64,000 nt of DNA from the NCBI GenBank assembly GCA_030693145.1, contig JAUYBI010000071.1, positions 10,354 to 74,353 of the forward strand, given 5' to 3'. The DNA comes from Candidatus Omnitrophota bacterium (GTDB taxonomy: Bacteria; Omnitrophota; Gorgyraeia; Gygaellales; Profunditerraquicolaceae). The notes under the pieces are model-generated. The model had not been told where the DNA came from. It ran no database searches and saw nothing but the letters and a program-made list of their open reading frames with translations. A program made the translations under genes and the position numbers. Each line of letters opens with the position of its first letter. The stretch's first letter is position 1. Positions 1,510 to 41,600 of the stretch are shown here, one piece after another.

Positions 1510-1532
1510 ATTTTTTAGAGGAGGTGAAAAAG

Positions 1533-1889: not shown

Positions 1890-1903
1890 GGAGGTGAACA
1901 AAG

Positions 1904-2564: not shown

Positions 2565-2565
2565 A

Positions 2566-3681: not shown

Positions 3682-3691
3682 TAAAATAATT

Positions 3692-4078
3692 ATGATAATA
3701 CAAATTAAAAAATATGGCTCAGCTAAGGCAAGCGCGCAATCGACATTGGAATACGCCATGGTAGTTGCCTGCGTAGTGGCAGCGCTTTTAGGGATGCAGT
3801 TTTACCTCAGGCGGGGAGTGCAGGGTAAACTCAGGCAGGCAGGAGATGAGTTAGGCGAACAATATACACCGTTGAATGTGGAGTCAAAAATTATCACAGA
3901 AACAACTTCCACCACAGGGATAATACAATCTTTAGTTCCCTTGGACAAGGACGGCAAACCTTTGCTTGATCAATATGGTTTGCCTGTCTACGGAATGAAG
4001 ACAGAGGCAAGTATTGATGAGACTACCGAGAAAAGCGGAAAAGAAACATTAGGGGAATTTGAAGATGGTTTATTTTAA
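3692..4078 (+). CDS. Flp-like prepilin with C-terminal extension (128 aa)
   Basis: ATG 3692 in the frame of ORF 3614-4078. Protein MIIQIKKYGSAKASAQSTLEYAMVVACVVAALLGMQFYLRRGVQG... Confidence 0.55.
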   Translation: MIIQIKKYGSAKASAQSTLEYAMVVACVVAALLGMQFYLRRGVQGKLRQAGDELGEQYTPLNVESKIITETTSTTGIIQSLVPLDKDGKPLLDQYGLPVYGMKTEASIDETTEKSGKETLGEFEDGLF

Positions 4079-6377: not shown

Positions 6378-6379
6378 AT

Positions 6380-8388: not shown

Positions 8389-8668
8389 GAGTGTAAATAG
8401 AAAAGGTGCAAAAGGTAAACTTAGAGTAATCTAAGGACACAAAGCCACGGATCCTAAAATCAAGAAATAGTGTCAAGGACAGCCGGGTTGCCAGTACCGA
8501 CGAAAGTTGGAGCTGACAACTCATTTTTTATTTAAGAACTTAATAAAAAATTTTAAAAACGTTTTAGTAATCTGTAACCTTATGCAAAGAAGCTTCATTA
8601 AAAAAATGAAAAGTCTTGGGGTAAGGGGAAGTATTTATTTTTTATTTAATACTACAGGTAAGTAAAAA

Positions 8669-14600: not shown

Positions 14601-17600
14601 TATTTGGAGATGAAATTCATCAGATTGCACAATCGCCACATTTAATAATGGGGATAAAAGGAGAACCGATAAAAGCTGATTTTTTAAATAGGATTGGAAC
14701 AGAGTTTGATGGGTTTTCCGGATGGTTAAAGAAAAAAGCAGCGCTCAGTGGCGAAGTCAAGGATTATAAAGATTTTGGTAATTGGTTGATAAAAGAGCAT
14801 TTCATTAGAAAAGTTGGCAATCAAGGATATTTAGAGCAAAAACTTGTAAAAGAATTTATAGAATATAAAGAGAACAAAATTGACATAAATAAATTCCGCG
14901 ATATTGAGAATAAAGAATATAAAGATTATCGGCTAATGCTTAATGCTTTTGCAGATGCCTGGGGAATGGTTAAAGAACAACAAGGAGGATATGGTTGGTC
15001 AGGAGATAAACCTTTGGAATTAGAATTCAGAGGCAAGCCAGTGCCTATTCATGAAGGTAAGCTAGCTGCACAGATGTATTGGAGTTTAGAAAACATTGTT
15101 ATTGCGCGTTGGATTGCTGCAGCACGAATGGAAGGATTTAAGGGGAGTGTAGATAAAATTATGTTCAATGAGAAGGGGGAATCTCGTATAAGTGCAAGCC
15201 CCGAGTCCCTAAGAGTTACACCTATGAGTATAGTAAAAGATTTTAATTATAAATCTTTCCTTTCTGCTACTCCCGAGTGGGCAGGGCCTATTTCTCGGTT
15301 TATGGGCGTAGGGGTAGAAAGAAGGAATACGCTTATGAGTGAAATAAAGAATTACTTAAAGAGAGAAACGCCGAAAGATCAATTTCAGTATCAATTTAAA
15401 CTAGAACATGTAGGATATTTTAAAGATTTTAAGAAAGGATTAGAACAATTTAGCTATGACGGTCCAATTGTTATTAAGCCCGCCTTTACATACCACAAAG
15501 ATAAAATAGCAGAGATGGTTGTTGGTTATGCAGAACGTACAAATAAAGTCCTGTTTGTTATGAAGGACGGTGGTTTTGAAGTATACCGTAATGGTATTCG
15601 TGACAGTATGATAGTTGACAAAGAAACAGTGAAAAAAAAATTATCCGAAGGAGAAAATATAGCGGTTTTATTCGACCGCCCTAATTTAGTAGGGTATAAC
15701 TTAGATTTTGGGAATAAAGGGGACATCCCTGCAAGTCGGCTTAGTAAAGATCCTAAATATATTACTGTCATTGATTCGGATACTACTGCTACTGAGTTTA
15801 GGCATACATTGGGAAGAAACCGTGGAAAATTCACAGAAAATGTTTGGGTTCTTGATAGGGAAGGGAAGATAAATGATGTAGATAAATTGATAAAACAACT
15901 TGAGAAAAATGAAAATAAGGCATTGGTCGATGCTTTTTATCAAGCATTTAATAATGTTGCTCATCAAGGGATGATTTCCCGGTTTGACTTGCTAAGGAAA
16001 TTCTCATTGAATGATTTAGATTACAATATAGTAAAAGATTTTCAAACAGAATTTCAAAGTAGGAACAAGATGGATGACGATATCAGCCCGCGTAGTGATA
16101 TGGATTTGGCTACCGCTATCGATCGTTCAGCAAAGAAAGAAGCCAAAGATTTTGTAGAAGTAGCTCAAAAGTTTAAAGGTAAGCTCAATCCTGCGCAAAA
16201 AAATTATGTAGAAAACTGGATAAAAGAAACCGAAAAGATAAGTAAACAAGGAATAGAATTTAAGGGTAACGATGTGAATAGAGACGGAGAGAGGTTAGCC
16301 AGAGAGATTGGCTGGGCAAGATTGGATTTTAGCGAAGCTACAAAAGTTTTTAGCGAAACTTATAAACGTAAGGAACTCGCAGAAAAAAGAATATCCCTTA
16401 TGTCTTCTTTAGCTATTCCGCGAGAAATTAATTGGGTAGGAATAGCTAAAGAAGGAATGACGAAAGATAATTTCCAAAAAGGCCTTACAGCAGAGATAGA
16501 GAAAACAGGCCTTTCACATAAATACTCTGAAGGTTATAGCAAAGATTTAGTTTCTTCAATGCCCCAAGACGTATTTAAAGGCAGGTTCACATATTTAAAG
16601 AGTCCAGCCATTACTGCTGGAGGAATTGGGTTCTTAAATATACTTACACAGCTTTCTTCTTCAAATGAGGATGAGATAGAAAAAATTAAAAATATACTCC
16701 TAAGTCTATTTGATTTTAACAAGGCACAGGAGTTTGCTCTTAATTTAAGAGGAATTTCTACTGATTCTGCACTTTATCCATTTTATTTGGGATTCTTGGT
16801 TTCTTCGTTAAACATTCATAGTAGAGAAGAATTAAGTAGTGTCATAAAGACGAGAGAAGCTTATCTTAAAAATGTATTCAATGGGCTCCCAGATAATGGA
16901 ATAAAAAAATATTTAAGTGACCGAAATTTGATACATTTTGGAATTCCAACTTTTGACGGTTATTCTTTTATCAATAATTTCCGCTATTCGCAAAATATTG
17001 TTCGGAACAGAGGGTTAGAAGAAGCAACAGTTATAAGAAATTTTGCGTTTCCCAAAGCAGCTATTCAACAAAATAAAGGGTTTCATGAAGACACAAGTTT
17101 TGAAATTGCAAAACTTCTTCATAAATATGATATTACTTTACCCCAACTTTACGGTGTCGCTAAGTCAAGTATGGCCTTAGTGGTGCAAAGAAAGGTTACT
17201 CAGCTCCCCAAGTTAAAAACAGTTAGCAGGATACGCGAAGGTTTAGATTTTATGAATTGGTTAAAACAAGAAGTTGTTCCTGATACAGAACTTCATTCTT
17301 GGCTGTCTAAAAAAACAGAAATACTTAGTAAGGCGAATAATAAATTAGAAGATAAATTGAATAAGGTGTATGGACGAAGCGGCGCAGCTAGGTATTTATT
17401 AAGAGGTATAGATAATTATCGCATTAGGAAAGAAATTTATAACTATAATAAATTAACCACATCTACCGATTTGGAAAAATTAGAAGAACTAATTGGAATT
17501 GATTCTAAGGCCTCCGTTAGTATTTTTAATCCCAAATTGTCTTTTAAGGAAATTGAAGATTCCGTAGCAACCATAAAAGGCTTATCCTTGTTGGGGAATA

Positions 17601-20600
17601 AAGTGCCTTTGGGTAAAGTTACTCTTTCTGAAATATATCAGAATTACGATATCGCTAAGCTTAATGGATTATCGACGATTAAAAATATTCCTCAGATTGG
17701 ACTTTTAGCTGATTATGACTTTGATAATTTACCTATGGATATTTCGGATACTTTAGCGAAATCTGCGCCGATTATTTTACCCAAAACAATCACTCAGGGG
17801 ATAATTAATAATCTTGGGTTATCTGAAAATGAAGCTAAGTTAGTCTTAGGGGGAAGCAGGCCATTAATCGTAGTAAAAAATCAGGATAAATTTACTATTT
17901 TTGAAGCAGGCGGCATCAAAAGAGAAAACATAGATAACGCCGATTTATTTGATCTTGTAAAACCTATTACAACGAATGAATTTCTCAGCCAAGGCATGGA
18001 AAAGAAATTTGTTCAAACCTATACCGATTTAATACCAGAGGTGGAGTATAGAGAAGATTTAGGATATACAGAAAAAATGGGTAAAAAGTTATTTGATAAA
18101 GCGATTAAAGATATGCATTTGTCTGATATTTACAAATTCTATGCAGATACAAAGGATATTTCTACCCTAAAGACAGAAGAAGTGATTTTTAAACAATTTG
18201 GAAGAGAAATAAGAAGAAATTTTGGTTTCAATCCTGATATTTGGACAATAAAAATGGCATTAGATAAAAAACAAACAGGTTGCGTTACCGATACGCAATT
18301 TGCGGCTTTATTGGCAAATACAGTTAATATGCCCGTAGAGTATCAGAGAATAGAGGGCTTATCCAGGCCGCATTTCGTACCCATTATAAAATTTGCTGAC
18401 GGCAACAAAAAAATAGTAGATTTTACACCTTATTTAGATGAAACAAAAGTTTCATTTATCAGCAAGCCCATAGATATAGAAAATGATTTTGAAAGATTAT
18501 CCGGCAGTTTTAATCAATACCGGCTCAAATTAGGAATAGATACGGCAGATAGCTACTTAGATGCCCAAAGAGAGTTAAGAAATTTGCCTAATACCGGCCT
18601 TACTGCCGCTATCTATGGAAATATGGGAATGCATGATGATAATTTAAAACATTTATTTAAAGCTCTTGAATACGACCCCCAGTATCATCAAATTAAAGAT
18701 AAATTAGAAAGAGAAGGATTTATTATTCCTGTTGAATATAATGGTAACCAATATCTAATCGACAAAGAAATCGCTTCTAATGAAGTATTAAAGAAACAAC
18801 TTGCGCAGATTCCTTTACCTGAACGCAACATAATCTTAGACAAAAATAGCCTGATAGGAAATAACGGTAATAGTATTACAGAGGGTGTGGTGCGTAAAGG
18901 TGGAGTTCTTTACCTTAATTCAAAGATTTTAACTGATGATAATAAAGAAATTTTATTTCAAGCTTTAGAGTATGGTCTTAACGGAATAAATCCTGAGAAG
19001 GGCGTTGTCCATATTCTTAAAGCAGCCAAAGTTACTAAGCTGAAAGATAATGGCATTGGTTCCGGTGTTCCTTCTTTAGAAAGAATGTTTACATACTTTA
19101 AAGATAACGGTCACGGTCTCTCTGAAGAAGTAATTAACGATGCGGCGATATTTATCGGAGAAAAGCTAAAATCCGAGGAAATAGAAGCAATAATTAATGC
19201 TTGGCCAACTGACGGCGGCAAAGGGGTGGTGGATAGAAGCAGAGTAGAAGAAGCAGCTAAGTTTTTAGCTGGCCGGATTGCAGACTATGGATTAGGATTA
19301 CTGGCGCAACGGGCTGTAGAGGAAGCAATGGCCGATGCGAAAAAATTATTATATTCTGAGAATGAGATAAAGGAAGCGTTAGAATATTTGAATGCTCAAA
19401 AGGAAGCGGTTGAGAATATGTTTGTCTTGAATAATAAGCTTCGGGAGGAGTTTAATACTCTCGATCTAAAAGATTACGCTAAATTATTAGAACAACATAA
19501 GCAGCTGCAAAGAGAAGTTAATCCGGGGATGGAAAATATCATAAAAATCAAGATCGAAGCCGCGATATTAGATGAAATAATGAAACTTCTGGCGGCCCCA
19601 ATTGAGCAGGTTGCATTGATAGCCGGTAAAGCAGAGAATTCTGTTTTTTACGCAGATGAGCTTATAAAAGTTAGTACAACGCAGGCAAGGAATACAGGTT
19701 ATTCAATTTCAGGAAAAGAAGAGGATGCGCTTATTTCGCGCATTGTTGATTTGCGGAATGAAGAAAGAAATTATATTTTATTACATAACCATCCATTTGG
19801 CGTAGATGTGGAAAATTCAGGTTCGGATAAAGAGCAGATAGAAAATTTCGCGGCATTTATAAGCGTTATAGGAAACAATAAAGCGCCTCTATCTTGGCTT
19901 GCGGCTCAACGTTTGGATAAGGAAGGCAATTGGGAATACATTCCGTTTACTATAACAGATAATGGTAGGCCAATGCCGCTTGAAGCAGTAGAAAAGCGGT
20001 TTGGTAAGGCAATTAGCTATTATCCCGGATTGATTGAACATTTCACTAGTCATATTGTGGCTGGTAAATTAAGCAAATTGATAATAGATAAAGCTAATCA
20101 GCCGGCAGAAACGGATTCTGGCGAGCCTGTACGTGGGCAATCTCCAGCGCTTCCTCCTATTACACCAAACATACCTATGTCACCGTCTTTACGAGATGGC
20201 GGGGCGCAGCGGGTTCCGTTTGGCTTATTTAATAATAAAATAACTACCATATTGCCACAATTGGCGGCTCGGATTGGTGAACTTCCTGGTATTACTTTGA
20301 GCAAATGTTATGGCAGCGTTAATCCCAGGGGCCCGCCTGCTGGTTCCACGACTGACTCTTTAGTTGTAAATGTAAGTAGTGTAGCAAGTGTAGTAAGAAA
20401 CGCAGTTGGTTTAGTTGGAAAACTGTCAGGTGCCCAGAGTGTTGACTCCAGAAATGGAGCAAGAGGGCAGGATGCAGAAGGTGCGTCCAACAGTAATATA
20501 GGTAAGAGAAGTGGAGTAAGTTCAATAGGAACCAATGGTGAGGCAAAAGGTGCCGAAACCCGAGGTTCTATTCGTGCGTATGGCTTCCGCAATAAGATTA

Positions 20601-23600
20601 TTAATGATTTAAAGAAGTTAATCCTCATTCCTCAGTTCAAAAATCCGACAATTCCTGAATTAAATCAATTTATTAGCGCAATATTAAGGGATGGCTCTTG
20701 GCCTTCTGCGAGAGCAGAAGTTCTGGCCCCCAAGAGCACCCTTAATACAAATAATTATTCGCAGGATGGGGGATTATTCAAAAATGGCGATATTCTTAAA
20801 GAAATTAATGAATTAGTTAAAGTAATGGCTAAAGATATTGGTATAGAACGAATGAAAAAGGGAATCAATACTATAGAAGATACTATAGAAGACAAGTATT
20901 CCGAGCAGAATGAGGATATACAAACGATACTAACAGGAAAAGCAGTGGCGAAAATTATCGCAGATAAAGGGATTTTGTCTGTGGAGAATATTAATAAAGA
21001 AGGTTTAGAGATTGATGATGAATTTTGGGCTAAGTTGGAAACATATAAGAGGATATTGTCTGGGTTAAGTGATTCAGGATTGGACGCGGAGAAGAAAAAG
21101 GCTAAAGCTGGTGATAAGTTGGCTGGAAAGTTGGTTAGAATTATTGAAGGCATAAGAGGATTAACATATGAAGAAAAGATAGAGATAATAAAGGGAATGA
21201 TAAAAGATACACCATGGAAAGAAAGAATAAGAAAATTGATAAGTCTCTTGCCGTTAGAATTAAAAGAAGTTTTGATAAGAGAAGTGCCGGGTGAGGACAT
21301 GTCGAAGGTCGAGAGGGTTTTAGAGGAGCGTCCGTATAATGGGAATACTGAGCAAATATATAAAATTCTTGAAGAACTCAGAGAAGGACAGAAAAAAATT
21401 GTAGCGAAAGTAGATAGAAACGAAGCTAGGCTTGATGAAACTGAAGAGGCACTAGAAGATGTAAAACAAGAAGCAGGAGCAGCAAAACAAGAAGCAGTAA
21501 GAGTTAAAGAAGCAACTACGTTATTAGGTGCAGAGGTAGCTAAAACTAAGGCAATGGCGCTCGATGCACGTAGACATGCAGTAGGAACAGGGGATGATTG
21601 TTTGGTTGGCGCGGTTAAAGATCCAAATGTCAGAAGAGAAGCAGATAGAAATCTTCGCATAGAGGCTGGTGTTGATGAATTTGTTCCCTATGTGGTTAAG
21701 TATTTATATACTGGTATGAAGATAATCAGGCAAGATTATGATAAGTTTATTGAAAAATATAGGACTGAAGGGAACTGGAAGAAGGTAGAAACTTTAAAAC
21801 AGGAAAAATTGACCGTAGTGAAAGTAAGAGAAGAAAATAAAGCGATTGAATTGCTTTCAAAATATTCTGGAAGAATAAGCATAATAGTTCAAAAGTCTCA
21901 AGATCTACTGCATGTTTATCAGGTAACAGGTTATAACTCTGAGACTAGAATGATTTCATACTCTGAGGATAATGGAGAAGGCCATAATGTTGGATATGGA
22001 GAGATTGCTTTGGATGAAATCACTAAGATCTACGGCGAATATGTGTTTGTTTTAGAGGAAGGGGTAGTTAATGAGGCAGGATTAAAAGCAAATGTATTAA
22101 CTGAGAAAGAGCAGAAAGCAATTAAGAACGTTGGTGGAGCTGGTGTGGATGCCAACAACAATAACGGTAGCGTCACAAGCAACAGTGCAAGCAATAGCGT
22201 AAATAACAATACTGGTAATACAAATAGTAATAACAGCGATACTAATAGCAATGATAATACTAATAATGGCAATAGCAACAATGGCAACGGCAATACTGGC
22301 AATACAAATAACGGTAATGGTAACACTGGTAATACAAATAATGGCAAAGGTGGTAATGGCGCAGCAGGCAATGGGGTAGCTGGGGTTGCGGCGTCGCCTG
22401 CGGCTCCTCGCGGAGCAACCGGAACAGTAATAATAGGGAATGTGGAAGGTCTTTCTTCTGTTCTCAAAATAAGTAATGGCCTTAGCCCTCCGGAAGCTAT
22501 ATTCGTCGAACTTGCCAATACCTTCCGCAGTTTAGCTAACCAGTTAGAATCAAGATTGCTTCGCCCCTTCGGGGCTCGCAATGACACCCATAATACTAAT
22601 GACACTGCCGATCTTCGTAATGCAATAGATGTCCTTAATAATTCCGCCAGCGCCTCAGAGAATTTGTTTGGTTTGATGGATAAAGCAGTCCGCCGCGATG
22701 AGGACGATGTTATCACAGCTCTCCTTAAGAAACTCATGGGGGCGATTAAAACCCGCGGCCTCAAGGACCTGAATGGACGTTATTTCCGCGCCGCCCGCTT
22801 AATCGCGCACAGATACGGGCTTCCTTATTCTTCAATGGTCGAGCTTGCCGCCGCCTTTATGTTACTTAATGAAACAGATGATTTTATCCGAGCGCTAAAA
22901 GATGAGGCTGATGTGAGAGCTGAAGTATTAAAGGCTAAAGAAGGCGAGATTGCTTCGCTCACTGCGTTCGCTCGCAATGACGGGTTAGTGGTGACGAATA
23001 ATGCAGCAGCTTATGATTTATTGAATAATGTATTAGATATCTTGAATAATTCTGCAGCTAGATACGCATCAGACGGAGGGTTAGCAATAAATGCGATAAG
23101 GATTTGGCTTGAGGAGGTTCGGGCGGGCATAAGAAGCATAGTTGATATGGCGGCAAGCGTATTTAGGGTGATTAGCGGGTTCTTATTGCGAGTTGCGCAG
23201 CGTAGAGGTAATGACGCCTTACCGGATTCTAAGAGTTTGCCGGGCGAAAATAATAATGAAAACGCTTTCTTGCCGGCTCAAGATGGTAACTTAAAAAATA
23301 CTTTAGTTGAATTGGCAAGCCGCCTATTTGGTTCAGGCCGCGGATTAATCGCGGATTTACAAGGCGCAAAAGATGTTGATTCACAGAGAGTTGTGGATAC
23401 AAATAAACTTGTTTCAGCGATAATGGTTATAATCGGCACATCTTTGGTTATTATATCCCAGGCTCCTCCATTGGTTATGATTGCGTATTTAGTAATTGCA
23501 ATTAACCAATTAGCCACGGGAGGAGAAAATGTTAACGATTATAAAAATTCAAGAGATGAGAGAACAGATGGCGGAATTAGAAAACCAGTACCGCATTCGG

Positions 23601-26600
23601 CGTTTACAGGAATTCCGGCAGGCGGCAGCTTTGGAGATGCTGAATTTGAGAAGTATTTTAACAGAAAATCCGAACAATTAAGCCGTCTTTATATAGAATC
23701 AAATAATCCGGCCAAGCTTGGCGCACGCCTAGTGCGCGGCCAGTCTGCGCAGCTTGCAAATGCCCATCAAACCGACGGCGGCGCAAGAGAGCCTTTAGCA
23801 GGATTGGTAGAGGTTTTGAGAGTAAAAGATTTATTGGCTACAATTAAAGCCCGCGCGCAGAATGGAAAGAATCTTAATGGGCGTGTTTATGTTGGCGGTG
23901 TTTGTCGAGATAATATAGAACAAAGGCCACTACCGAAATTAAGATTACTGTTAAAGCAGCTAACAAAGTTCCTGACATTTTATCAATCTCCTTCCTTATC
24001 AGAATCTGGACGAATAAGCAAGCCCATTATTAACGAACCTAATAAACCTATAACAATTAAAACTTTAATTAGAATTGTAAGCTTAATAAAATCCGCTGCT
24101 ACTAATGCAGCAAGCAGAACTTTGGAAAAATCAAGTAAAGTTTGGGAAAGGGCTTTAAGTTTACTTTTAGAAAGAAACATCATCACAATCTTTCTATCAT
24201 ATATTAATAATTCTGTCAATACTATAAATTTTGGCACTAAAAAGAGACAGGGCCAGGAAACGGTTAAATACCAAGCCTGCGACGGCGGCGCATTTAGCAG
24301 GATGGGTTCATTCCCTGTAGGTTTACCATTTACAAGGTCCACAACGCTTCCCGTAGAACTACCTATTTCTTTACCGGTTTCTCAGGATGGTGGGAATAAT
24401 GTTAATTTAACTAAATTGGCAGCACAGGCATTCAGTTTAGATCATCGCGGTTTCATTGTTTCTGTAAGAAGAGTCTTAGGCGGTATTTCCAAATCTGAAG
24501 TAAAAGATGCTCAATCGCTACCGATAGCCCAGACAAACATTAAGAAGTCAATTTTCTCATTAGCTCCTCCGGTTAATGGCTTGATTTCGCGTTTGGTAAG
24601 CGTAATTAACCAATTAGCCACGGGAGGACAAAATGATAAGCATAGACAGAATTCAGGAGATGAGAGAGCAGATGGCAGAGCTGGAAAATCAGTACCGAAT
24701 CCGAAGATTGCAGGAATTCAGGACGGCGGCAGCAGTGGAAATGTTGAATTTAAGGAGTATTTTAACAGAAAACCCGAACAATTAACCAGCCGTCTTTATA
24801 TAGAATTAAAAAATCTAGCTAATCTTGACGCATACTCTGGGCTTAGTCCGCCTGCGCAGCTTGTAATTGCCTTAATAGCTGCAGTGGTATTTGGCCTTTC
24901 CGCTTTAACCCATCAAACCGTAATAAATTCCATATATTCCACTTTAAAATCCAGGGGACGGTTCTGTTTTTTACCATTAAGTTCAGAAAACAGAACCGTC
25001 CCCGTGTTTTTGATATTAACTTTAACCACTACTTCACAAAAAGGAGGTGAATCATGTCACCCATTAAGCTCGAAGGCATCAGGATCCACCACATCATTGA
25101 CTCCACAAAAGATTATTCAACTTTTGCTGCAGCTCGTGAACACGGTAGTAACAAGATTAGGATCTTCCTGGTTAAAGATTCAGGCTCTGTCTATGCGCAT
25201 ACTGGACAGGAAGACACATGGAAGGAGATTGTCGGATCGGTCGCCGCCTACATCAGGTATTCCATCAGCCAAGCCCGACAATATGTTCCCGTCTACAAAG
25301 TCAATACAGCCTACGCTACAAACTAAAGCCGGTTTCTACGCTGCAACAAAGAATATTGTGATTTCTATTATCGCGTTGTTCTTTGTTGCGGCGCAGCCGG
25401 CAGCTGCGGCGGAAGGCTCGAAATTATCAGAGATGGTTCTTTTTGGAGGGGCTATATTTTTAATAGCAGCAATAATATTCGGTTTATTCCTCGCGTTTTC
25501 GATAAAGATGGGTATTCAAAAAGCAGAAAAAGCTATTGAAGAATATGGGAATAATACCCGGAGGATCGAAGATAGTGTTATAGCTAACCAAGTGATTGAA
25601 GCTTCAGCGATACATATAGAATCTACAGCAACGTTAAAATCTCCTCCGAATGCGTTATGGGTTTTAGAAAAGCTAACTTATCTTGGATCCGGAATTATTA
25701 CTCTATATTTTCCGATCTTTGGATTCATTAGGTTATCCTCTTGGATGATTGGTATCGGATATGTTTTCCTTATAGTGGGCGGTATAATAATTATACATCA
25801 TCTTGGTATGATGAAGAATAAAGCTAAAGGCATGAAAGTAGCGGGAGAAAGAACTCCTGCACAGATAGTTACAAATAATGGCCTTTATAGATGGATTCGC
25901 CATCCGCTTTATTTAGGGCAAATGATATCAGTAATTGGGTTTGTTTTAGCCTACACTAATTTATTTGCTTTACCTTTAAATATAATTTGGTTCTATTTAG
26001 TGAATAAATTGGCTTCTGCGGAAGAGGATTATTTGGTTAGCGTGGCTCCTGGTTATGCGGGTTATAAGCAACGGACAGGTAAATATATATATATACCAGG
26101 GTTTTTAGCAAAAAATAACGATAGTGAAAAAGAAGCAGTAAATAGTGATAATCTGTTTGATGGAGGGACTCTTATCGCTTTGGAAGCGGTATTAAGCGTT
26201 ATAATAATAGATCAACTTCTAAAATATATTGCCACCAAACGTTTACTTCCGCATTCTGAATATATTGATAAGGGTTTGAACTCTGATGGTTCATATCGCA
26301 GTAGAGGAACGACCGAAATTTATTATAATGAAGAGGCAAAAATTAAACTAATTGGACGGCTTGCACTTGTTAATGTAAGGCATAGTTCTGGCTCAAAAAC
26401 AGATAATATCGCCGTTGTTAAAATTGGTATTCTTGCTTCTTTGTTTGTGTTGTACGGCGCCTATTTTTCTGGTAACACTGCCTTGACTGTAATTTTTGTT
26501 TTAGCTGCTGGGGGATTCTTCGCTACCATCGTTGATATAATTAAATCAAAGTTTAGAGGAGCAATAGATCCGTTTATGTATGGAGGTACCTTTAATAATG

Positions 26601-29600
26601 AGCGGAGATTCGTTTTCTTCAATTTCGCAGATATATGTGTACTTACAGGATTGTTTCGCGCAGATTCCGGGGACGCATTACTTAATTTAAAAGTTGGCTC
26701 ACGGCGCGACGGCGGCAGGGTTCAGGGGGTGTTTGCGGTTTTAGGTGTTGGCGCATTAGGTGTGTTTTTCTTAATTTCCAGCTTGAAAGATTTAATTCTG
26801 ACAGTTTCTGGCGTAAACGGCATTAGCTTGGTATGGGTGGCATTAAAGCTGTTAATGGGCAGCAGCCTTATTTTCTCCAGCTATTCGTTAAATTATCTTA
26901 GGTTAGAGGCGGCAAAAGTAAATGGGCTTGTAACAAAGGGGCCATACAGTTTCTCAAGAACTCCTGTTTACTTGGGGTATATTTTAGCCGGTACTGGTTT
27001 TGCGTTTAGTTTAATTCTCTCCGGGGAGTTATATTCAGTATATTTTGCGGCTAATTCCGCGGCTATAATATATTTATATTTGGGAGTTTATAATGAAGAG
27101 AAAACGCTCGCGAAACAATTTGGAGAAGAGTATAGAAATTATCAAAATTCCGTTCCGAGATGGTTTGCGTTTAAGTTATTTTGGAAGGTGATAGTAAAAA
27201 AAGCTGATATTGACAGCCACCGGTTAACACAAAAAGACGGCGGCGCAGGGGCGTCGATAATTGAAAAGTTGTTAAATGCAATTAAACCCCGCGCGGAGAA
27301 TCTTTATTTGATTGCTTCGAGGTGGGATAATCTTAAATCTATTTCTTCTACTTTCCGCTCTACTTTTATCAATCTTAAATCTATTTCTTCTACTTTCCGC
27401 TCTACTTTTATCAAGCGTAAACCTATTTCAGCAACTTTCTCCCACGTTCTGGCTATGGTAGTTTCAATTCCGTCAATTCTTCTATTAATTGATTTTAGCT
27501 CTTCGCCAAATACCCTAAACTGGCTTCTTAGATCTTCAATGAGCACCGCCACTTCTCCCGCGGTCATTGTGGTTTTATTTTTAGCATTCTTATCCATAGC
27601 AGTAATTATAAGCGACAGAGTGAATTCTGTCAAGAATAATAATTTTACCCTTGAAATTAAGCGCTCTTATGCGATTAATCCAGCCCGCGACGGCGGCACA
27701 GGGACGATGTTACAGAATAAAATTGCAGCTACAAATATGGAACCAGAGGTTAAGCTTATGTTAACACGCAGGGGTTTCTTGGAAATTGGCGCTGGTATTG
27801 TTGGCTTGGGATTAAATCCGGGAATAGGGGGCATTAAAGAATTAGCAAATAAGTTTGCTGGTTTATTGAAAGGCGAAGAAATAGTTGATTTAAATAATCT
27901 TTCTGTTGACAGAGAGGCGTTAAAGCAACACGTAACAAAATTGGCTAATATCGGTACAAGAGCAGCCTATTTTAGAAATACAACTAATATTAACAAGGCT
28001 AAAGATTATATTGTTGGTTGTTTAGAGAAACTGGGATTACAAAGAATACATAATCCAATAGGGAAAGGATATATTTTACAGCAGTTTACAATGCAAGAGA
28101 TTTATGTTTATCCTAGAGACGATTATCCTTATTTAGACTATGAGTTAAAGTCATTAAGAAATCAAGAAAACATATCGTCTGAACAAACATCAGATCAATT
28201 GCTTTCCGTAAAGATAATGTCGTCACTGAAAACATTGCTATCGTTTTTACAAATCCGAAAAGAGGATAAATCACTTTTTGAGCTAAATATGACCATGCTG
28301 AAAGAGGCTGGTATCAAAGTTCCTGGACCATATGGTCCGGTAAAAGTACTTAAGAATGATTTAATCGTTGAGGGCACAAATATTATTGTTAGAATACCCG
28401 GAAGTAAGAATCCTGATAAGAAAGTTATTCTGGGTGCTCATTATGATTGTTTCAAAGGTGTTGGCGCTAATGATAATGCAACCGGGGTTGCTTGTCTTTT
28501 GGAGGCAGCAAGGATTATTTCGAAGTTTAATTTTGACGATACAATAGAGATTATTTTCTTTACCGCAGAAGAGGACGATAGTTTAGGGAGCAGTTTTTAT
28601 TTAAAAGAATTATTTGAAGAAGAAAAGGCCAATATAAAAGGGGTATTTATTGTTGATATGATTGGTAATAATAAAGGAAAAGATGAGCCTGAAGGGGAGG
28701 AAGATCTTAATTTACTGTATGATAGATATAATCCGGAAATATCTAAAAAGCTAATTGAAGAGACTGTAGAAGCTATACAGAAACACGTTTCGGATTTTTC
28801 AGTAACGGCTAATGAAGATGAGGGTTATGATAGTGACGATGACCCATTCCAAAGTGAAAGAATACCTACGATATTGTTTAGCGAAGATACCGGTGAAGAG
28901 CTTACAACTCAGAATGAGTTTTTTAACGGGGCGCAAGACACAATAGAGCATATAGATTTTGAAGGGTTTTTCCCCAAAGCAGTAAAAGCGGTTATAGTTT
29001 CCGTTATCGTACAAAGTAACTCTAATAAAGACGGCGGCGTAATTGGTTCTGCTATTATATTACTGGTTCCTGGCATTTGGAACTCAATGTATATGCAGTT
29101 GATAGGGGTGAATAGGCCTGGCATAGACCGCATCCTGTATGAAACCGGCCCGCCGGAAATTAAGATTGGAGTTATCAAATATTTATTTAATAGATTTAGC
29201 CCTGGCTCAACCAGTGTTTCTCAGCCTACCGTGGCAGGTATTTCCTTTAAAGCCCGCGCGGAGAATCTTTATTTGATTGCTTCGAGGTGGGTTAGCCGTT
29301 TACTGAAATCTTCTTTGATAATTCGTACGTCTTCTTCTATCTTAGCAAGTTTACCGTTCATTCTGGTTAAATCGTCTTTTATCCCCGCTGTCCTTATATT
29401 TAGCGTAGTAATATCTTCCCTGCTCTTTGCCACCATACCCATTGTGCTGTCTAATTTGTCTCTAAGCGCATCTTGGCCTTCACCGAGAAGCTCAATCCCT
29501 GAATGGACCTTTTCGAGGATTACCGCAAATTCCCGATCTTTATCAAATTCTTTGAGTTTCTTTGTCTCTTTCTTCATGCTAAGCAATTCCGGGAACACAT

Positions 29601-32600
29601 TACTTAATTCCCAGCGCGGCGGCGGCGCAGTTTTTATTCTTTTCGGTGTTTATGATGCGTTAGACGGTCAATACAAAACCAAACACCAAAAATCAGCACA
29701 ATTAATAATAGGGTTACTACCGCAGTCATTTCTATTATTTAGTATGATGAGAGTGAAGATGGCGGGGAATCGTGAAAATCCCGATAAGAATAATAAAAAT
29801 CAAACCACCAATCAACATAAACAGCAAACCGTTCATAATTATTCAACTCCTTTATTAAGCATAGTGGCAATGATAAAGGCTGCCATAAAAAACATCAAAC
29901 CTACCATAAATACACTAAGACGAAATTCAATTCCTGAGACGAATTGTCCGATTACTAACGCCGCAAATACTAATTTACCTATATCGTACAAAGATTTAGA
30001 CAATTCCTTTCAATTCTTTCTTATAAAAGATTCTGGGATAAGCAGATCTATTAACAAAGCCAAGAAAGATTCAATGGCGGATAGGGTGATGTTTGCGGGG
30101 GGTAGTAAAGAAGATACCCAAAAGCGCAATAATTATTATTATCAGGAACGTGAAAATCAAGATCATTTATCCTCCGAATTTTTCAATAGCGTTAGAGCCC
30201 AAAACACCAATATCACAGTAACACCCATCCCTAATATGATAGTTAATAATTTAATAAAGAGTTTTTCCCCTGAGAATATGGGATTTAGTATTACAACAGC
30301 AATTAGTAATTTACTTACATCAAATAGAGTTTTTGCTAATTCTTTGGATTGGTTCTCATTTAGCCGCATAGTTAAATATATACTACTAGAAGAGATTGTT
30401 GTCAAGCCAAATTATTTTATAGTAGCAAACGATGGATCTGCGACCGACGGCGGCATACTTAGTTCTGCTATTGTATTAGCGGCTCCGGGTGTTTGGAACT
30501 CAATTTATATGCATTCGATAGAAGGGATCAGGACTGGCGTAGACCTTTTATTATATGAAACCAGTCCGCCGTATACTGTTATTCTTCCTGATGTTTTCCT
30601 CCCAATAGTTTTCGTCTTATTATTATCCGTAATAACAAATTCTAAACTAAATTCAGCAAGATTTAGCCCTGGCTCAACCAGTGTTTCTCAGCCTACCGTG
30701 GCAGGTTGGTTTGTGTTGGCCGGGGCTATTTTATTTGTTACCCAGCCGCTGCTTACCTTAGGGATACTTACCGTGGCAGGTATCTCCTTAATTGGTGCGG
30801 CTATTGTTGTATATGGGGGCTTCGCAGGCATTATTCCTGCCGGGGCCCCCATTGCAACAAGAAAGGGCAGCGTTCCCGCGGTTGCGGATGGGGGAAGAAA
30901 AGTAAATATTGATAAAGTTACGATGACAGGCGATTGGCGGAGCTCAATAGCTAGAGTAGAAGAAATACTTAAATTGGTGGAAGATGCTTGTTATCGCGTA
31001 ATTATGGTAAAACAAGGGAAAGTCGATGCTGATACGATAATAAAGATAAGAGAGAATTACAAGGGAAGAAAACGGGATACAGCTATAGATATGAAGCTGG
31101 GTAAGATAATAATAAATGATAATAGAGAAACATTGCGTATATATAATATTCTGAGTAAACAGCAAAAATTTGTGGATATTTTTAATATTTCTATTAAAGA
31201 AGATGTCCGCGGAGCGGCAGCTCAAACATTTGGAAACCTGGCAAAGGAATTAAATATTCCACTTGAAAAGATCTCAGAAGGGTTGATGGAAAAAGGTGTA
31301 AAATCAGGAGAGTTTGAAACAGCCTTTGTTTTGTTAGAAGAGGCAAAAGACAAAATATTTATCGCGGTACAGGAGATATTAAATATCGATATCAATGAAG
31401 AAGGAGTATATAGCATTGGAAATGAAGGTGATTTTATAGATGCCCAAGGCAGACGCATAGATTTATCTGACTATAAAGTTGTAAGCCATATTCATTATCA
31501 TCCCGGAAGAAAAGACGGATATCCTGTTCCGTCAGCGTTTGATTTGGGTTTATATACGCAGCTATTGTTTAGTAATAATGAATTTATAGGCATTGTTTTT
31601 GGCAACGATACTCAAGATAAGCTTATATCCAAGGCGTTTGTCTTAAAAGACGGCAGAGACCTGGGAAAGTTAAAGCTCGACATAGAGAATTTGCTAGAGG
31701 AGAGGCAACTCTTGGAAGAAAAAGGCGTAACGGAAGCTAACCGTAAAATATTTATTGGTATGTTTGAAATTTTTATCAATGAATATTTCCGCATAATTCA
31801 AACCGAAGATTTTAAGATAAACGAAAATTGCGGAAAAGAAGCCGACGGTGGAGAAATAATAGACCCAGGCACTTATGAAACGGCTCGGAAGATAAACTGG
31901 AATGAATGGTTTTTAAAATATGACGCGGTATTTTTCCTTAATATAGTGACGTTGTTTACCCCTAGGGATGCTAAGGCAATAAGCAAGACTATAGAAAAAC
32001 TTAAGGAATTAAGAAAAATTAATCCCGGTAAGTTTAAAACAGCGTTAGAAGAAAACAAAGATTATATAAGGGGTAAGATTCTTAACAATATGAGGAGTGT
32101 TGCCAAACAGGTAACACATACAGAAGAATGGCTTTTTGGTGACGTGGACGCATTATCATACGATAAATTGGATATGTTAATGGAAGTCTTTCCAGAAGCA
32201 TTTATAGAAGCAACAGAAGAAAGAACCAATAGCGAATTAGTTGGAAACTTTAAACTTGCGACTAAAGGTAAAGAGCTTATGCATAAGGCAACAAATTCTA
32301 TGGGGCAAAGACTATTGGAGCAAGAAAATAAAAATGTAAGATATTTATTGGCTACCTTATTCACAGAGGGCATGGATAAAAAAGAAGAGCTAGATAACAT
32401 TAGAGAAACAATAGCCGCTCTTAGTAGAGCGGATATAGAGGACAATATTTTTGTCTACTTATCTTTATTAATAAATACAAATGTAAATAAAGAGTTAGCC
32501 CCGAAGGTCGCCAGAGCAATAGAAGGTTTCTTAGCCGAGAGGGGGATAAAAGGTAATATTAATCCGGATAGTTTAGTAGCAGAATATAGCAAAATAATAG

Positions 32601-35600
32601 AAAATGGCCGAAGGATAAAGCATATCGCCATTAATTTAGAAGCTGTATTTGGGAAGGATGTTTTAATAATATGGGATAGTTTATATAATTCTTTACAGGG
32701 CAAGAGGCAGTTTCAGATAAGCCGGATAGTGGAAAGTATCAAATCGGGTGTGGGGAGCCTGAGCAAGAAAGGCGCGGTGAATGTTCTGGTTGCTTCCGGT
32801 GATATGTTAGGAGAACAAGGCCACAAACAGATTATCGAACCATTTAACAGGGCATATAATAGCGGCATAGATCTGGATAGTAGAATAAAAGAAGATTTTG
32901 GAGTAACGGAAATAAAAGGTGACAAGGTTATTATAATCCGCGCTGAAGAGAAGAATGTGTTGAATGGGGCGCCCGCCGTAGTGAATATAATAACAGACGG
33001 AGAAATGCCTGTTGGGATTATAGACGCGGTAGTAACCGGCCTGTACGAGCAAGGGGAAAAGAGTTTTATCAAAGGGTTTATGAATCTGTATGAAAACGGA
33101 GCAGAATTAGTATTGGGTTACAAAGTACTTGATATAAATGGCGTAAGGGTAAAATTGAAATACGATAACGAAGAGAAAAAAGAATACCCCGTAATTTACA
33201 TTACTATAAGTATGTACGACGTCGCTAAGATGTTAGAAACAATAGCCGGAAAAAACTGCGCTTTGGACGGCGGTAAGGATTCGCAAGATACGGGTTATCT
33301 ATTGAGTAAAAATGAGGTTCGCGCGGCTACTTTGGCTGGGGTGGGGTTAGTTGTTTTATCCTTTATTCTTTCAGCGTATGGTTTTGAAGATTTAGCAATT
33401 GCCAGCGGAGCGATTGGGTTTATGTTAACTGCTGTCGTAGCGATAACCTGGTTAGCCATTAAAATTAATCCTCAGATTAAAGAGGTTTATTTAGAGGCGC
33501 TGGAAAACGCTAATGAGCCGGTGGCCATATCAACCGTTTCCGGGGAGGAAGAAATTTCTAATACAGTTTTACCAATGGAAACAGAAATGAGAATAGAAGG
33601 GGATATTATTCATCACAATTTCTCTCCCAGCCGGATCGGTGAAAATAAAGCAAACGGGTTAATCACTAAAACAGTTGCAGCAATTGATAAGGTTAACAGC
33701 GCCGCAGGCGTTAATTCTGCATATATGAGCCGCTTAGATATGTTAGCCGGATTATGCCTTTCTAACGGAATTATCGGAGTTTGGTATTTTATTAAATATT
33801 GGAATGCGTATGGAATGGACCCGACCAAGACCTGCGAACAGTTGCTTTTGGGTAAGCAGGTATATGGTTATCCTCACCCGCGGCAAGTCGATATCTGGCT
33901 GGCTTGGAAAGATAACGCGCCCCTGGGTTATGCCGTAGCGTTAGGGCCAGATAAATACCGCCATATAGCTTATGTAGCGGTTGTTCCTGCAATGAGAAAG
34001 CAGGGAGTTGGGCTTAATTTAATGAAAGAGTTTTTTGAATATGCCAGGAGCCAGGGAATCGCAGAGTCATCTTTACATGTTAACGCAGATAATCTAGGGG
34101 CCTTGGGATTATATAGGAAAGCAGGTAGGTTTGCGGATAAAGTAGTAGAAATGGTAAAGGAAACCCCGTCCGGCATTGCTCAAATAAGAATGGAATTTTC
34201 TATTAATCGCGGGAAGGGAGACAACAAGCAGGCTGACGGCGGTTTGCTTAGGGCTGGGCCGGTGTTTAGTGAACGTGCTTGTGGCGATATTGATCGATCC
34301 CCAGCCAAACTAGGATTACGAGAATTATGGCGCTTAGGGTTAAAAGGGCGGTCATATCAATCTTCCTCCAAATTTCCTTTTGGGCAGACAAAAATTGCTC
34401 CTACCACTGAAAGAATCGTTGTTAATATAAAAGCAGTTTTCCACGGCATCGCTGCTTTAAGGAAGGCTTCTGAAATAAATAAAGCAATTACTAATGCCTG
34501 GAATAAATTTATTAAAGCTTTTGCAATTAACCGTCTGCGCGAATCTGTCCAAAATACATCTTCTTTCATTGAAAAAATACTACCATATCTTATTAGAGTT
34601 GTCAATAGCAATAACTTTAGAGATTCTTCGTCGCTGACGCTCTTCAGAATGACGAGGAGAGTAATTGAATTTGACGGCGGCAGAACGATAGTAGATTTTC
34701 TAAAGAAAGTTCCGTTAAAAGTTTGGCTTTTGATTCTCGCGGCTGTTTCACTTTTATTATTCAACGTACCTACGGTAACCGGTGCTTTGGCTGTTCCGGT
34801 TCTGGTGGTGGTGGGGATAACAATTTCCGGGACAACAATCGCGATTTTGGTACTTATAGTAATTATAGGAGTGTTGGCTGTTAAGAAATCTTGGCCTGTC
34901 ATAGCTCACCTTGCGGGTTTTGCTGGGGTATTGTTTGGCGTTTCGAAGTTACCGTTAATATACGCAGCAGCAAGTAATTTTGGTATGTTAGGCGCGTTAG
35001 GGTCATTTGTTGTTTCTACAGGAATAATCGTTGGCGCGATGTTCTTCTTCTTCGCGCTTATTGTAGATTATAAGAAATACGGGAAAGCAGAATTACATTA
35101 TACAGGTAAAGGCATTACTTCTTCCTTAGAAGACTATCAGATGCTTGCTTTGCAGGATATCGCGAAAGAGTATTCAAAAGAGTACTCAAAAAATAGTTTC
35201 AGCACAAAGAAGCTTTATTCGTTATATAAAAATAATCCCCGTTATCTAATAGCTGCGTTTGCGGCTGGTTTTATTATCGCGGCTGGTTTTATATTATTTA
35301 TTCCTACAGTTTTTATTGCAGCTACTATCTTAGAATCGTTGGCGTTAGGCGTATTGTTCCCTTATCTTGCGCATGTATTTCTGGATTTCTTTGGTAAATA
35401 TTCATTCGAGAATTTACATAATGTTGAAAATTTACAAAAGATTAAAGATTCTAAGGAGTTTGAAGAACGAGCTAAAAAATATAAAGGCGAGCTTGAGCGG
35501 GTGCGCAATCCCGAGACAAGGGAAAAAGAAGGAACTACGGATTATAGTGTGTTTATCTACGAATCAAGGATTATTCGCGCTAAGTTAGCCTTTCGCTTCC

Positions 35601-38600: not shown

Positions 38601-41600
38601 GAACGAACGTTACTTTTACTTTTGGGAAGTCTGATAATAATAGAAACGTTACCTTAGAATTTTATGCGCTGAATATGTCAGACGACAGGCAAATCCGTCT
38701 GAGCTCTCCAATAGTGATACCTGATGTAGATTCAGACCCATCGCCATATACTATCCCTGCCATTAGTAATTATTTCCAGAATGGTGGTGGAGATGTTACT
38801 ATCAGGTTAAATCAACTGCTGCCTATTAATATTACAGGCATGGGGATGAATGTTTCCTCTTTAAATAACACCGCTGTAAGTAATTTCTGGACGCTGAATT
38901 TAACCGATGTATATAATGACAGCACAAACAACATTACTCTCAAGCTGGGTGAGAATCCGCAGGTAGCAGGAAGAGAGATAACCTTTGCCTTAACTGGATT
39001 CGATAATATAGGAAAGAAAACTGCGGATAGCGGCGCAGTGCATTTTGATATGATTAATCCTAAGGTAAATATTAGCTTACCGGCAATAACTGGAACTGAT
39101 AAGAGCCAGATAGATTTGGGAGTAGGCCAGAACGCTACGATCAACTTTACCATTACCAACCCGGGAAATTACGCCTCAGTAAGTGATTTGCTTGCCCAGA
39201 ATAATACCTTAGCCTGGGAAAGCCTCACCGGCGCAAACCAGAGCCTGGCTCAGGAAATTGTCAGAACCGGAACCGCCACCATCTGGTATCAAGCAAATAA
39301 AACCGGGAGTACCGAGCATTATACTAACCTGACCTTTAGCGGCATAGATAGCTCAAACTCCATAGCTTTTACGCCAGGGTTTAATGTTACTTATGCTGTG
39401 TATTCAGATGAGGGTTTAACCCGGTTCAGCAGCTTTAATGAGCCAACAACATTCAATATTGCTCTTGGCGGCAACCACACTGTAACCGGCAGCGTGGTTA
39501 ACTTAGCCAATCTCTCGAAAGTCAACGCAATCGACGCTGACCTGTATTATCTGAATAACACCTTAAAACAAGAGAATGCCAGGATCTTCAATACCACTCA
39601 AGCCCAGGCAGGGTTGAATAACGGCCAGTTAACCTTTAGCTATGACGCCAATAACTCCGGCAGCGGCCTGATCTTCGCTAACCTGCGTTCAGTAGATGCC
39701 AACAACACCCGTTCCCCAGTCAGCGCCAACAACTTAACCATCACCTATCCGGAAAGTATTGACCCCGGTTTAACCCGCTTTAGCAGCTTTAACGCCCCGA
39801 CTACTTTTAGCATTAACCTCGGCGCTAACCACACGGTTACCGGCACCGTGGTTAACCCCGCGAATATCTCCAGAGTCCAGGGCATTGACGCGGACTTATA
39901 TTACTTAAACAATACCTTAAAACAGGAAAATGCCCGCATCTTTAACGCCACGCAAGCCCAGGCGGGTTTAGCCTCAAGCAGCCTGACCTTTAGCTATGAT
40001 GCCAACAACAGCGGTCTGATCTTTGCTAACCTGCGTTCTGTCGACGCCAACAACACCCGCTCGCCAGTCAGCGCGAACAACTTAACCATTACTTATCTGG
40101 AAAGTATCGACCCCGGTTTAACCCGCTTCGCCAGCTTTAACGCCCCCACGGCTTTTAGCATTAACCTCGGCGCCAACCACACGGTTACCGGCACAGTAGT
40201 CAACCCTGCGAATATCTCTAAAGTCAACGGCATCGACGCGGACTTATATTATTTAAACAATACCTTAAAACAGGAAAACGCCAGAATCTTTAACGCTACG
40301 CAAGCCCAGGCTGGTTTAGCCGCTAGCAGGCTGACCTTTAGCTATGACGCCAATAACTCCGGCAGCGGTTTGATCTTTGCCAACCTGCGTTCTGTCGACG
40401 CCAACAACACCCGCTCCCCAGTCAGCGCCAACAACTTAACCATCACCTATCCGGAAAGTACTGACCCCGGTTTAACCCGCTTTAGCAGCTTTAACGCCCC
40501 GACTACTTTTAGCATTAACCTCGGCGCTAACCACACGGTCATTGGCACCGTAGCCAACCCCGCGAATATCTCTAAAGTTAACGGCATTGACGCGGACTTA
40601 TATTATTTAAACAATACCTTAAAACAGGAAAACGCCCGCATCTTTAACGCCAGCCAGGCCCAGGCCGGTTTAGCCTCAAGCCGCCTGACCTTTAGCTATG
40701 ATGCCAACAACAGCGGTCTGATCTTCGCCAACCTGCGTTCAGTAGATGCCAACAACACCCGCTCCCCAGTCAGCGCCAACAACTTAACCATCACCTATCC
40801 GGCTACCAATGTTTCAGATACACTCTCTGATACCGTCCTTATGCCTAATATTACTCCTCCTAGCAGTATTACTACTTATGACGGCACTTGGAGATTTAAT
40901 TTCAGTTCTCCGGTGAATGTCTCCGGCACCAAAGAGATTCGTTTTGAAAATGTCACGGTTAACGGCACAGCTGAACCTTATATTTGGATGATGGCCAATG
41001 ATTCAGCAAATGTCAGCCTTATGCTTGGCAAAGGCACAGGCGAATACATTAATGGTACGCTGAACAAAACCTTATACAATAACAAAATCATCCGCGGCCA
41101 ATTCAGGTTTGTGGATCTTAGCGGCCGGTTCACCAATTTAAGCGAATTAGTAGAGATTATCGACCCGGATCCGGTTAATATTACTATTGAGACAAACAGT
41201 TCAACTCAGGTAGCGAATACATCAGCCGCCTCTAACATAACAGAAACAAGCAATAGCTCAATTACCGTTACTACTGCGATGGGTATAGAACAGATGACTA
41301 CAAATACTACTGGCATTATTAAAAGCACAATTATAGATGCTAAGGGCGCGGTTAAAGCAAGTATTGAGAATAATTTAGATGAAGAGACAACTATGGTGCG
41401 TGATAGTAATGGAGTTCTTTTGTATATCGGCGGCGGCTTTGGCGCGCGCACCGTAGCGGCAATCGATAGCGAAAATTCAACCGCTTATTTAACGCGGAAG
41501 GATTTAGTGCGTAATGTTATGTATTTTGAGAAATTTTCTATTGATAAAAACGGAAAGCTTGCTTCTATTCCTGAAGCGAAGATTAATCTTGATGGCACTC

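Follow-up and report, generated by a model that had tools for sequence, protein, structure and literature searches.

The 64,000-nucleotide stretch analysed here, called the window throughout, is part of contig JAUYBI010000071.1 of a Candidatus Omnitrophota genome (assembly GCA_030693145.1), and it carries one giant open reading frame (ORF) within which heterogeneous protein modules are punctuated by the tripeptide Asp-Gly-Gly (DGG). The punctuated array extends from 19211 to 34681 on the plus strand (aa 3516-8672) and holds 20 in-frame DGG triplets of 9 nt each. Among relatives of the gene, modules are gained, lost, replaced and reordered as units, with breakpoints at these nine nucleotides; and the conserved entity is the tripeptide, not the DNA word that encodes it. 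One way to understand both properties is to suppose that DGG is at once the joint of a modular array and the processing site, of Gly-Gly type, of a polyprotein. As a whole explanation this has, in our judgement, about an even chance of being right.

Catalogued giant proteins of the Omnitrophota reach 85,000 to 147,000 residues (10.1101/2023.11.21.568195, with 46 giant ORFs; 10.64898/2026.06.07.730766, with 916 long proteins). Post-translational cleavage has been proposed for them; no cleavage points are known, and hence the proteins cannot be split for analysis (10.1101/2023.11.21.568195). A recurring junction motif, module exchange and recombination go unmentioned in both accounts, and a literature search found no work connecting polyproteins and Omnitrophota. 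The question is whether the giants act as one chain or get cut, and DGG is the first concrete candidate for the sites at which they would be cut into working pieces. A boundary motif of this kind supplies a testable cleavage rule, and a means of segmenting giant proteins for structure prediction and annotation; its behaviour in relatives is evidence that giant proteins evolve by whole-module exchange at defined joints. If cleavage does take place, viral polyproteins would have a counterpart in bacteria, on a scale without precedent.

DGG triplets and their codons

Across the whole giant frame DGG occurs 22 times against 4.8 expected (2000 residue shuffles gave at most 14), and it is the protein's most over-represented tripeptide. 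The array contributes 20 of these against 1.5 expected (Poisson p about 2e-16), the remaining 13,288 residues holding two against 3.3 expected. Sites of the array begin at 19211, 20195, 20765, 23072, 23567, 23774, 24281, 24386, 24722, 26159, 26708, 27236, 27689, 29030, 30446, 30887, 31844, 33266, 34235 and 34673, all on the plus strand. An earlier note, made from this DNA alone, had listed 13 sites; each of them is indeed an in-frame DGG of the one giant frame on the plus strand, but the list was incomplete, missing nine (15566, 20195, 20765, 23072, 23567, 24386, 26159, 30887 and 58643), seven of which have GAT for Asp. The observation itself is therefore confirmed; the interpretation that went with it is partly supported. 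The two classes of spacing which the note had drawn from its list are not robust and vanish once all DGG are counted: the intervals are then, in aa, 328, 190, 769, 165, 69, 169, 35, 112, 479 and 183 for the first ten, and 176, 151, 447, 472, 147, 319, 474, 323 and 146 for the last nine.

Ten sites share the exact word GACGGCGGC. All ten copies in the window are on the plus strand and in the giant frame, and none is found on the minus strand, as the note had said; the expectation is 0.22, with a maximum of 2, in dinucleotide-preserving shuffles. Three further sites are near-exact and in frame, at 31844 (GACGGTGGA) and at 33266 and 34235 (both GACGGCGGT). By contrast, the only other 9-mer of equal frequency, GCCAACAAC (11 copies), is explained by the 354-nt tandem repeat in which it sits; this repeat (39413-40802, inside the giant ORF; 4 copies, 84% identity) is a repeated domain of about 118 aa.

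Much of the identity among the ten copies is due to a general codon-pair bias that favours GAC before Gly. By plain codon usage of the gene (GAC 24% of Asp codons, GGC 32% of Gly codons), a DGG would be spelled GACGGCGGC with a probability of 0.025, and 10 exact copies among 22 would have p = 5e-11. In the giant ORF of the window, though, GAC encodes 57% of the Asp residues that precede Gly vs 24% of all Asp, and of the other Gly-Gly pairs 20% are GGC-GGC vs about 10% expected. The context-aware probability is then 0.13 per site, which gives p = 2.5e-4 for 10 of 22. The excess of exact copies is real but moderate, far below the first impression. No conserved nucleotide or amino-acid context was found around the 9-mer sites of the window.

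Relatives of the giant gene are few. An exhaustive HMMER search returned only three, its other matches being stand-alone GNATs; a cluster look-up added a fourth, and a genome scan gave one locus; two metagenome scans gave no further relatives, and a word-index search with a 60-aa query gave N-terminal fragments only. Every relative found is a protein from a metagenome-assembled genome (MAG) of Candidatus Omnitrophota. Comparison DNA was taken from three of them: L003 (protein P0003, MAG STD1_64), 14.5 kb at 77-85% nt identity to the window, in blocks; L004 (P0077, GCA_018894885.1), 15.8 kb at 90-93%, in blocks; and L005 (P0001, GCA_018900855.1), 3.1 kb at about 90% over its main block.

DGG is enriched in all three (8 observed vs 1.9 expected in P0003, 9 vs 1.4 in P0077, 3 vs 0.3 in P0001), yet spelled variously. 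Eight or more codon triplets encode it there, including GATGGCGGC, GATGGGGGG, GACGGAGGG, GACGGGGGC, GACGGCGGA and GATGGTGGA, and exact GACGGCGGC is found at only 4 of the 20 sites (1/8, 2/9 and 1/3), about the context-aware expectation. Orthologous DGG sites differ from those of the window by synonymous changes only, and at aa 3516, 3844, 4034, 7408 and 7727 the tripeptide is retained although its flanks can hardly be aligned. Because the codons vary among relatives and orthologous sites differ only synonymously, it is the tripeptide DGG that is conserved and not the DNA word; selection maintains it as the codons that spell it and the sequence on either side drift. The earlier note had allowed either a nucleotide-level or a strongly selected peptide signal, and the signal is mainly one of the peptide. 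Where Asp does not precede it, the GG dipeptide reaches only about half its expected frequency in each of the three arrays. This figure is partly an artefact, as the glycines of the sites inflate the Gly frequency used in the expectation, and it is modest and lends weak support once this is discounted.

Two DGG lie outside the array. The isolated copy at 58643-58651 (plus strand, aa 16660, GATGGCGGC) stands just before a HEAT-repeat module and is probably a further junction; the HEAT module of L004 is likewise bracketed by DGG sites. The copy at 15566-15574 (plus strand, aa 2301, GACGGTGGT) is probably a chance occurrence, because the homologous stretch of P0003 has no DGG (the first of that protein is at aa 2970). 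In L004, several modules share the tail ...IRNADK(E/K)IT(L/Q)K(R/M)VK-DGG (L004 positions 6844-6885 and 8575-8802), and one very short unit reads DGG-IRAGPDNF-DGG. From these it seems that further context is conserved at some joints, as in L004, unseen in the window. The family of the 354-nt tandem repeat is also present in L004.

Modules and their exchange

The intervals between DGG sites are self-contained proteins of a kind that normally have their own gene. One is a complete LspA with DGG on both sides (aa 5835-6017, 26168-26716): the Pfam Peptidase_A8 profile is matched from position 2 to 134 of 142, at aa 5842-5997, and fills the interval. Next to it lies an ICMT-type membrane methyltransferase (aa 6018-6193, 26717-27244; NCBIfam isopcys_mtase and MddA, aa 6049-6165), the second of its type, since the module at aa 5356-5834 (24731-26167) combines a stretch of several transmembrane (TM) helices with a C-terminal methyltransferase of ICMT/PEMT type (aa 5698-5790; Pfam ICMT, PEMT and DUF1295, NCBIfam LmtA-like). 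An M28 aminopeptidase with its own twin-arginine translocation (Tat) signal occupies aa 6345-6791 (27698-29038; Pfam Peptidase_M28, E = 3e-28, aa 6572-6765), and two TM helices followed by a GNAT acetyltransferase occupy aa 8204-8526 (33275-34243; Pfam Acetyltransf_1, E = 3e-13). That is, LspA, ICMT, M28 with Tat signal and GNAT are complete, independent proteins, each of which fills one interval.

Other intervals are less readily named. The module at aa 7730-8203 (31853-33274), with no function assigned, is about 90% identical at the nucleotide level in L004 and L005 and is bounded by DGG in all three. Two modules, at aa 3519-3846 (19220-20203) and aa 7411-7729 (30896-31852), carry JAMM-like motifs and are considered below as candidate proteases; the last of the array (aa 8527-8672, 34244-34681) is of 146 aa. 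Ten further modules gave no family match in Pfam. All of these lie on the plus strand. A 42-nt tandem repeat, NLKSISSTFRSTFI, is present in 2.4 copies at 27329-27429, inside the module of aa 6194-6344.

Comparison of the window with L004 places the edges of homology on the DGG themselves. One block stops at 30895, on the final base of a DGG; two others begin at 33266 and 34673, each on the first base of a DGG, with 100% identity for 45 nt on one side and none on the other. The 438-nt module at 34244-34681 is missing from L004, where its neighbours meet as GCT-GGC-GGC-AGC-ATG. Upstream of the GNAT module, L004 has a different module from the window, and homology begins at the first DGG base. 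L005 has an unrelated module in place of the JAMM-like one, flanked by a pair of DGG sites. The HEAT-repeat module and the block of aa 9469-10322 come in a different order in L004, whose HEAT module, unlike that of the window, sits within the DGG array. Overall, 7 of the 21 block ends in the array fall at most 12 nt from a DGG, five of them inside the 9-mer; the chance is 4% per end, and p = 1.4e-5. From the presence and absence of modules, and from homology edges exactly at the 9-mer, it follows that modules move as units with their breakpoints at the DGG. The cassette-junction reading, one of two that the earlier note had offered, is upheld.

Two segments peculiar to the window hold most copies of the exact word. 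A 5.3-kb segment (25350-30648), absent at this place from both L003 and L004, which have the same junction, holds six DGG, five of them exact GACGGCGGC; a 1.1-kb segment (23342-24445, aa 4893-5260), which P0003/L003 lack and which in part duplicates the downstream region, holds four, two of them exact. Together they account for 7 of the 10 exact 9-mers. This fits a history in which new joints formed at a shared word and then drifted. The excess of GACGGCGGC would then need no separate nucleotide signal: codon-pair bias would act together with junctions that are probably recent and were joined at the shared word by microhomology. Short elements at 29192-29239 and 30659-30706 (...PRAENLYLIASRW and ARFSPGSTSVSQPTVAG) are common to modules that are otherwise unrelated, and look like remnants of segmental duplications from which the 5.3-kb segment arose. 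As to machinery, no flanking repeat or motif that would make a structured recombination site was found at the DGG sites, and no recombinase-type Pfam domain is reported within the giant ORF, the upstream genes being covered only by precomputed Pfam marks.

Two known kinds of system offer partial likenesses. In polymorphic toxins (CdiA with VENN; Rhs with PxxxxDPxGL) a short peptide also marks the point of a recombinational swap, and the Rhs motif is autoproteolytic as well; but these proteins have one junction each, and only the C-terminal toxin is exchanged, whereas about 20 junctions divide the array, whose units are enzymes of housekeeping type and membrane proteins. The cassette arrays of integrons, with their attC sites, likewise consist of heterogeneous units in linear order, individually gained or lost at defined joints. 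The joints described here differ in being 9 nt long, in frame and translated, and the units lie within one ORF; no integrase or attC-like structure was seen.

Proposed release at the joints and its alternatives

If DGG is a processing site as well as a joint, the giant product would be a polyprotein whose modules are released at DGG, most likely after the second Gly. Release would give each module a free N-terminus, at which its own Tat, Sec or TM signal could work. The prime candidate for the protease is the N-terminal C39 cysteine peptidase of the same chain; the second candidate is the conserved JAMM-like module. Cleavage at DGG by C39 in cis, or possibly by a JAMM-like module, is a step that we infer, and the odds for it look evenly balanced.

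Tat signals provide the strongest indirect argument for release at the joints. That of the M28 module (TRRGFLEIGAG, nt 27764-27781) begins 22 aa after a DGG; another module, in L004, opens DGG-ITL-TRRDFIRLSATIAGAIGFGA, with the Tat motif 3 aa past the DGG. The pattern [STN]RRxF[LIVM] matches nowhere else in the 28.5 k residues examined from three giant proteins, and a hydrophobic stretch follows both motifs. Tat signals work from the N-terminus of proteins that are folded and released; because these two come directly after DGG, release there would be favoured.

The C39-like domain that the earlier note had recognized in the same protein lies at about aa 215-375 (9308-9790, plus strand) and matches PF03412 above the cut-off (32.7 bits vs 22, E = 7.6e-8; aa 263-371, profile positions 34-130 of 133). 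Its candidate catalytic residues are Gln223, Cys228 (in NNCGINAL), His330 (in SEHFVL) and Asp340/347. All of these are invariant in P0003, the Cys region being outside the aligned part of the profile; the domain as a whole is almost invariant between the two proteins, although their first 700 aa or so, the domain included, are only about 51% identical. The His motif is also kept in a third Omnitrophota contig, L002. There was no PDB sequence match for the domain, and an AlphaFold 2 model, built on alignments of 2-3 rows, had a predicted local distance difference test score (pLDDT) of 41, a low confidence. The domain is treated here as a member of the Peptidase_C39 family, with cleavage activity predicted.

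JAMM-like modules are a lead of a different order. In the one at aa 7411-7729, alignment with L003 and L004 picks out E7549/E7551, H7610, H7612, S7623 and D7626; the pattern E...HxH...SxxD is invariant, and at the same place, in the three homologous modules (38% and 23% identical), with a spacing typical of JAMM. The other, at aa 3519-3846, has HNHPx8SGSD (motif HNHPFGVDVENSGSD, nt 19784-19828, read from the sequence). Neither has a significant match in Pfam (best E 0.041, to IF2_N; no JAB/MPN at E <= 10) or, by sequence or profile, in PDB (best E 0.37), and the pLDDT of an AlphaFold 2 model of the JAMM-like module, from alignments as thin as those for C39, was 45. For the two JAB/MPN-like motifs proposed in the earlier note, the residue pattern is there, sequence and profile searches give no match, and JAMM/MPN identity stays putative, at the level of the motif.

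Gly-Gly-ending sites are familiar from other proteases. Double-glycine leaders, cut by the C39 domains of ABC transporters of the ComA, LagD and PCAT1 type, share with the present case the papain-fold C39 and a motif ending in Gly-Gly. Such leaders are short and N-terminal, have conserved hydrophobic residues at -4, -7 and -12, and undergo a single cut as they are exported. The DGG sites lie within the protein instead, about 20 to a chain and with Asp at position -3; they show neither a leader consensus nor any conserved position upstream, and the peptidase is in cis. Viral polyproteins (coronavirus PLpro with LXGG, arterivirus PLP2, alphavirus nsP2) combine many proteins per ORF, joints ending in GG and a protease within the chain, and precursors of polyubiquitin and ubiquitin-like proteins are cut after GG by deubiquitinases or JAMM enzymes. 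The present gene, by contrast, is bacterial; no homology to viral proteases was found, nor a beta-grasp domain before the GG, and the cleavage is a proposal.

A number of observations weigh against the reading of DGG as both joint and processing site. Not all breakpoints are at DGG; the 5.3-kb segment has both its ends inside modules. Three sites of the window have a counterpart other than DGG in relatives: NGR at aa 4968, EAG (DEAGSS) at aa 5353 and GGS at aa 8524. The equation of exact 9-mers with young junctions is only a trend (7 of the 10 sites inside the segments vs 3 of the 12 outside, Fisher p = 0.08), and so is the presence of a hydrophobic segment or TM helix after DGG, with which the earlier note thought intervals often open (6 of 22 sites vs 16% background, p = 0.13, not significant). 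As the sites do not show the hydrophobic pattern of double-glycine leaders, the specificity of this C39 would have to differ; moreover, inspection by the positive-inside rule suggests that the C39 domain may be outside the cytoplasm, complicating its access to cytoplasmic junctions. The Tat signals, for their part, could be relics of recent fusions. Finally, a single clade is sampled (four assemblies, 77-93% nt identity). On the other side of the account, the self-processing polyprotein of the earlier note gains from the completeness of the modules, from the placement of the Tat signals and from the near-invariant C39.

A second perspective supposes that DGG is a recombination scar and no more, made by microhomology or by site-specific joining, without a role in the protein, and that the product stays whole. 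We regard this as the less probable account. In its favour, homology edges lie exactly at the 9-mer, the exact GACGGCGGC copies cluster in genome-specific segments, and there are no conserved flanks for a protease to read. A scar decaying neutrally, however, would be expected to accumulate about three times more non-synonymous than synonymous changes, and the retained orthologous sites have synonymous ones only. The tripeptide also persists where the flanks have fallen to about 25-40% identity, and Tat signals just past DGG would be hard to understand if the chain were never cut.

Could DGG instead be a short flexible hinge, or a domain cap, in a multi-enzyme membrane protein that is never cleaved? 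Gly-Gly is flexible and the sites do fall between domains, but a hinge has no need of an invariant Asp or of exactly three residues, other small or flexible tripeptides are not enriched, and the precision of the breakpoints, like the N-terminal export signals past DGG, would go unexplained. This account seems to us improbable.

Still less credit is due to the idea that the word GACGGCGGC is itself functional, whether in RNA processing or pausing, as a site for DNA binding or modification, or in tRNA-specific recoding. It draws on the ten identical copies, on one strand and in one frame, and on the excess that survives codon-pair correction. Against it, the relatives keep DGG with varied codons, the third positions of orthologous sites change at about the neutral rate, and no extended nucleotide motif accompanies the sites. 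Internal translation starts past DGG are rejected, as no consistent Shine-Dalgarno sequence and start codon follow the sites, and so is a known RNA element, as no Rfam family matches there; tRNA genes, considered as an alternative, were not found.

A compositional effect, chance or an artefact of assembly is effectively refuted: the gene does prefer GAC before Gly and GGC-GGC pairs, but the enrichment of the tripeptide itself is 14-fold and confined to one region, four independent assemblies show the same pattern, and a word of 9 nt is below the size that causes misassembly in k-mer assemblers.

To return to the reading of DGG as joint and processing site, its furthest extension is an 'operon in one ORF', in which some 20 enzymes of housekeeping type and membrane proteins would be made as one chain and released at DGG by its own C39 or JAMM-like peptidase, the DGG word doubling as the joint for exchange. 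This extension is tentative, and we think it rather more likely wrong than right. Were it true, it would amount to an integron-like cassette system working within a single reading frame, and there would be a practical rule by which to divide giant Omnitrophota proteins into the products actually made.

The giant gene and its setting

The giant ORF is the only stop-free frame of its kind in the window. It is open from 8666 to 64000 on the plus strand, starts with the ATG at 8669, has more than 18,445 codons and continues beyond the end of the window. The N-terminus has a hydrophobic segment (aa 22-44) followed by the C39 domain, and the first 700 aa or so are about 51% identical to MDD5465686.1, from the Omnitrophota MAG STD1_64. 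Upstream lies a locus resembling Tad and type II secretion systems (T2SS), with two T2SSF genes (TadB/TadC-like) and Flp-type pilins; an ORF6N gene is upstream too. The ranges 1524-4078 and 5532-7261 take in several paralogous pilin ORFs with class III signal peptides (…KGQ(S/N)T(L/A)EY…) and, after them and directly 5' of the giant gene, the two T2SSF genes. The sequencing run SRR13727537 holds a contig identical to the upstream part.

Giant genes of the Omnitrophota have been described as having an N-terminal C39 domain and, upstream, a T2SS-like locus with class III signal peptides (10.1101/2023.11.21.568195). Because the C39 N-terminus and the upstream locus match that description, the host gene is a known kind of object, an Omnitrophota giant gene of 'Archaeovorin' type. 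The likeness extends to the single ORF of tens of kilobases, to the N-terminal TM or signal segment ahead of C39, to the arrays of ordinary enzyme domains (methyltransferases, peptidases, GNAT, HEAT) and to the Omnitrophota origin. The published descriptions differ in mentioning no recurring junction motif or module exchange; the DGG punctuation and its breakpoint behaviour are the additions made here.

A c-di-GMP-I-GGC riboswitch aptamer (RF03167; 61.1 bits vs a gathering score of 59, E = 5.7e-12) is found at 8405-8496 on the plus strand, about 170 nt 5' of the ATG of the giant ORF. Because of this position, the giant gene may be under the control of cyclic di-GMP (c-di-GMP).

The ORF has some further features. 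Low-complexity repeats of 30 nt, rich in Asn, Gly and Thr, are found at 22262-22347, and others of 51 nt, encoding KGKYGKSTKKQEAAPVP, at 51803-51988. Far downstream, and still in the same ORF, are the HEAT-repeat module, at 58900-59720, and a cytidylate-kinase domain, at 61900-62600.

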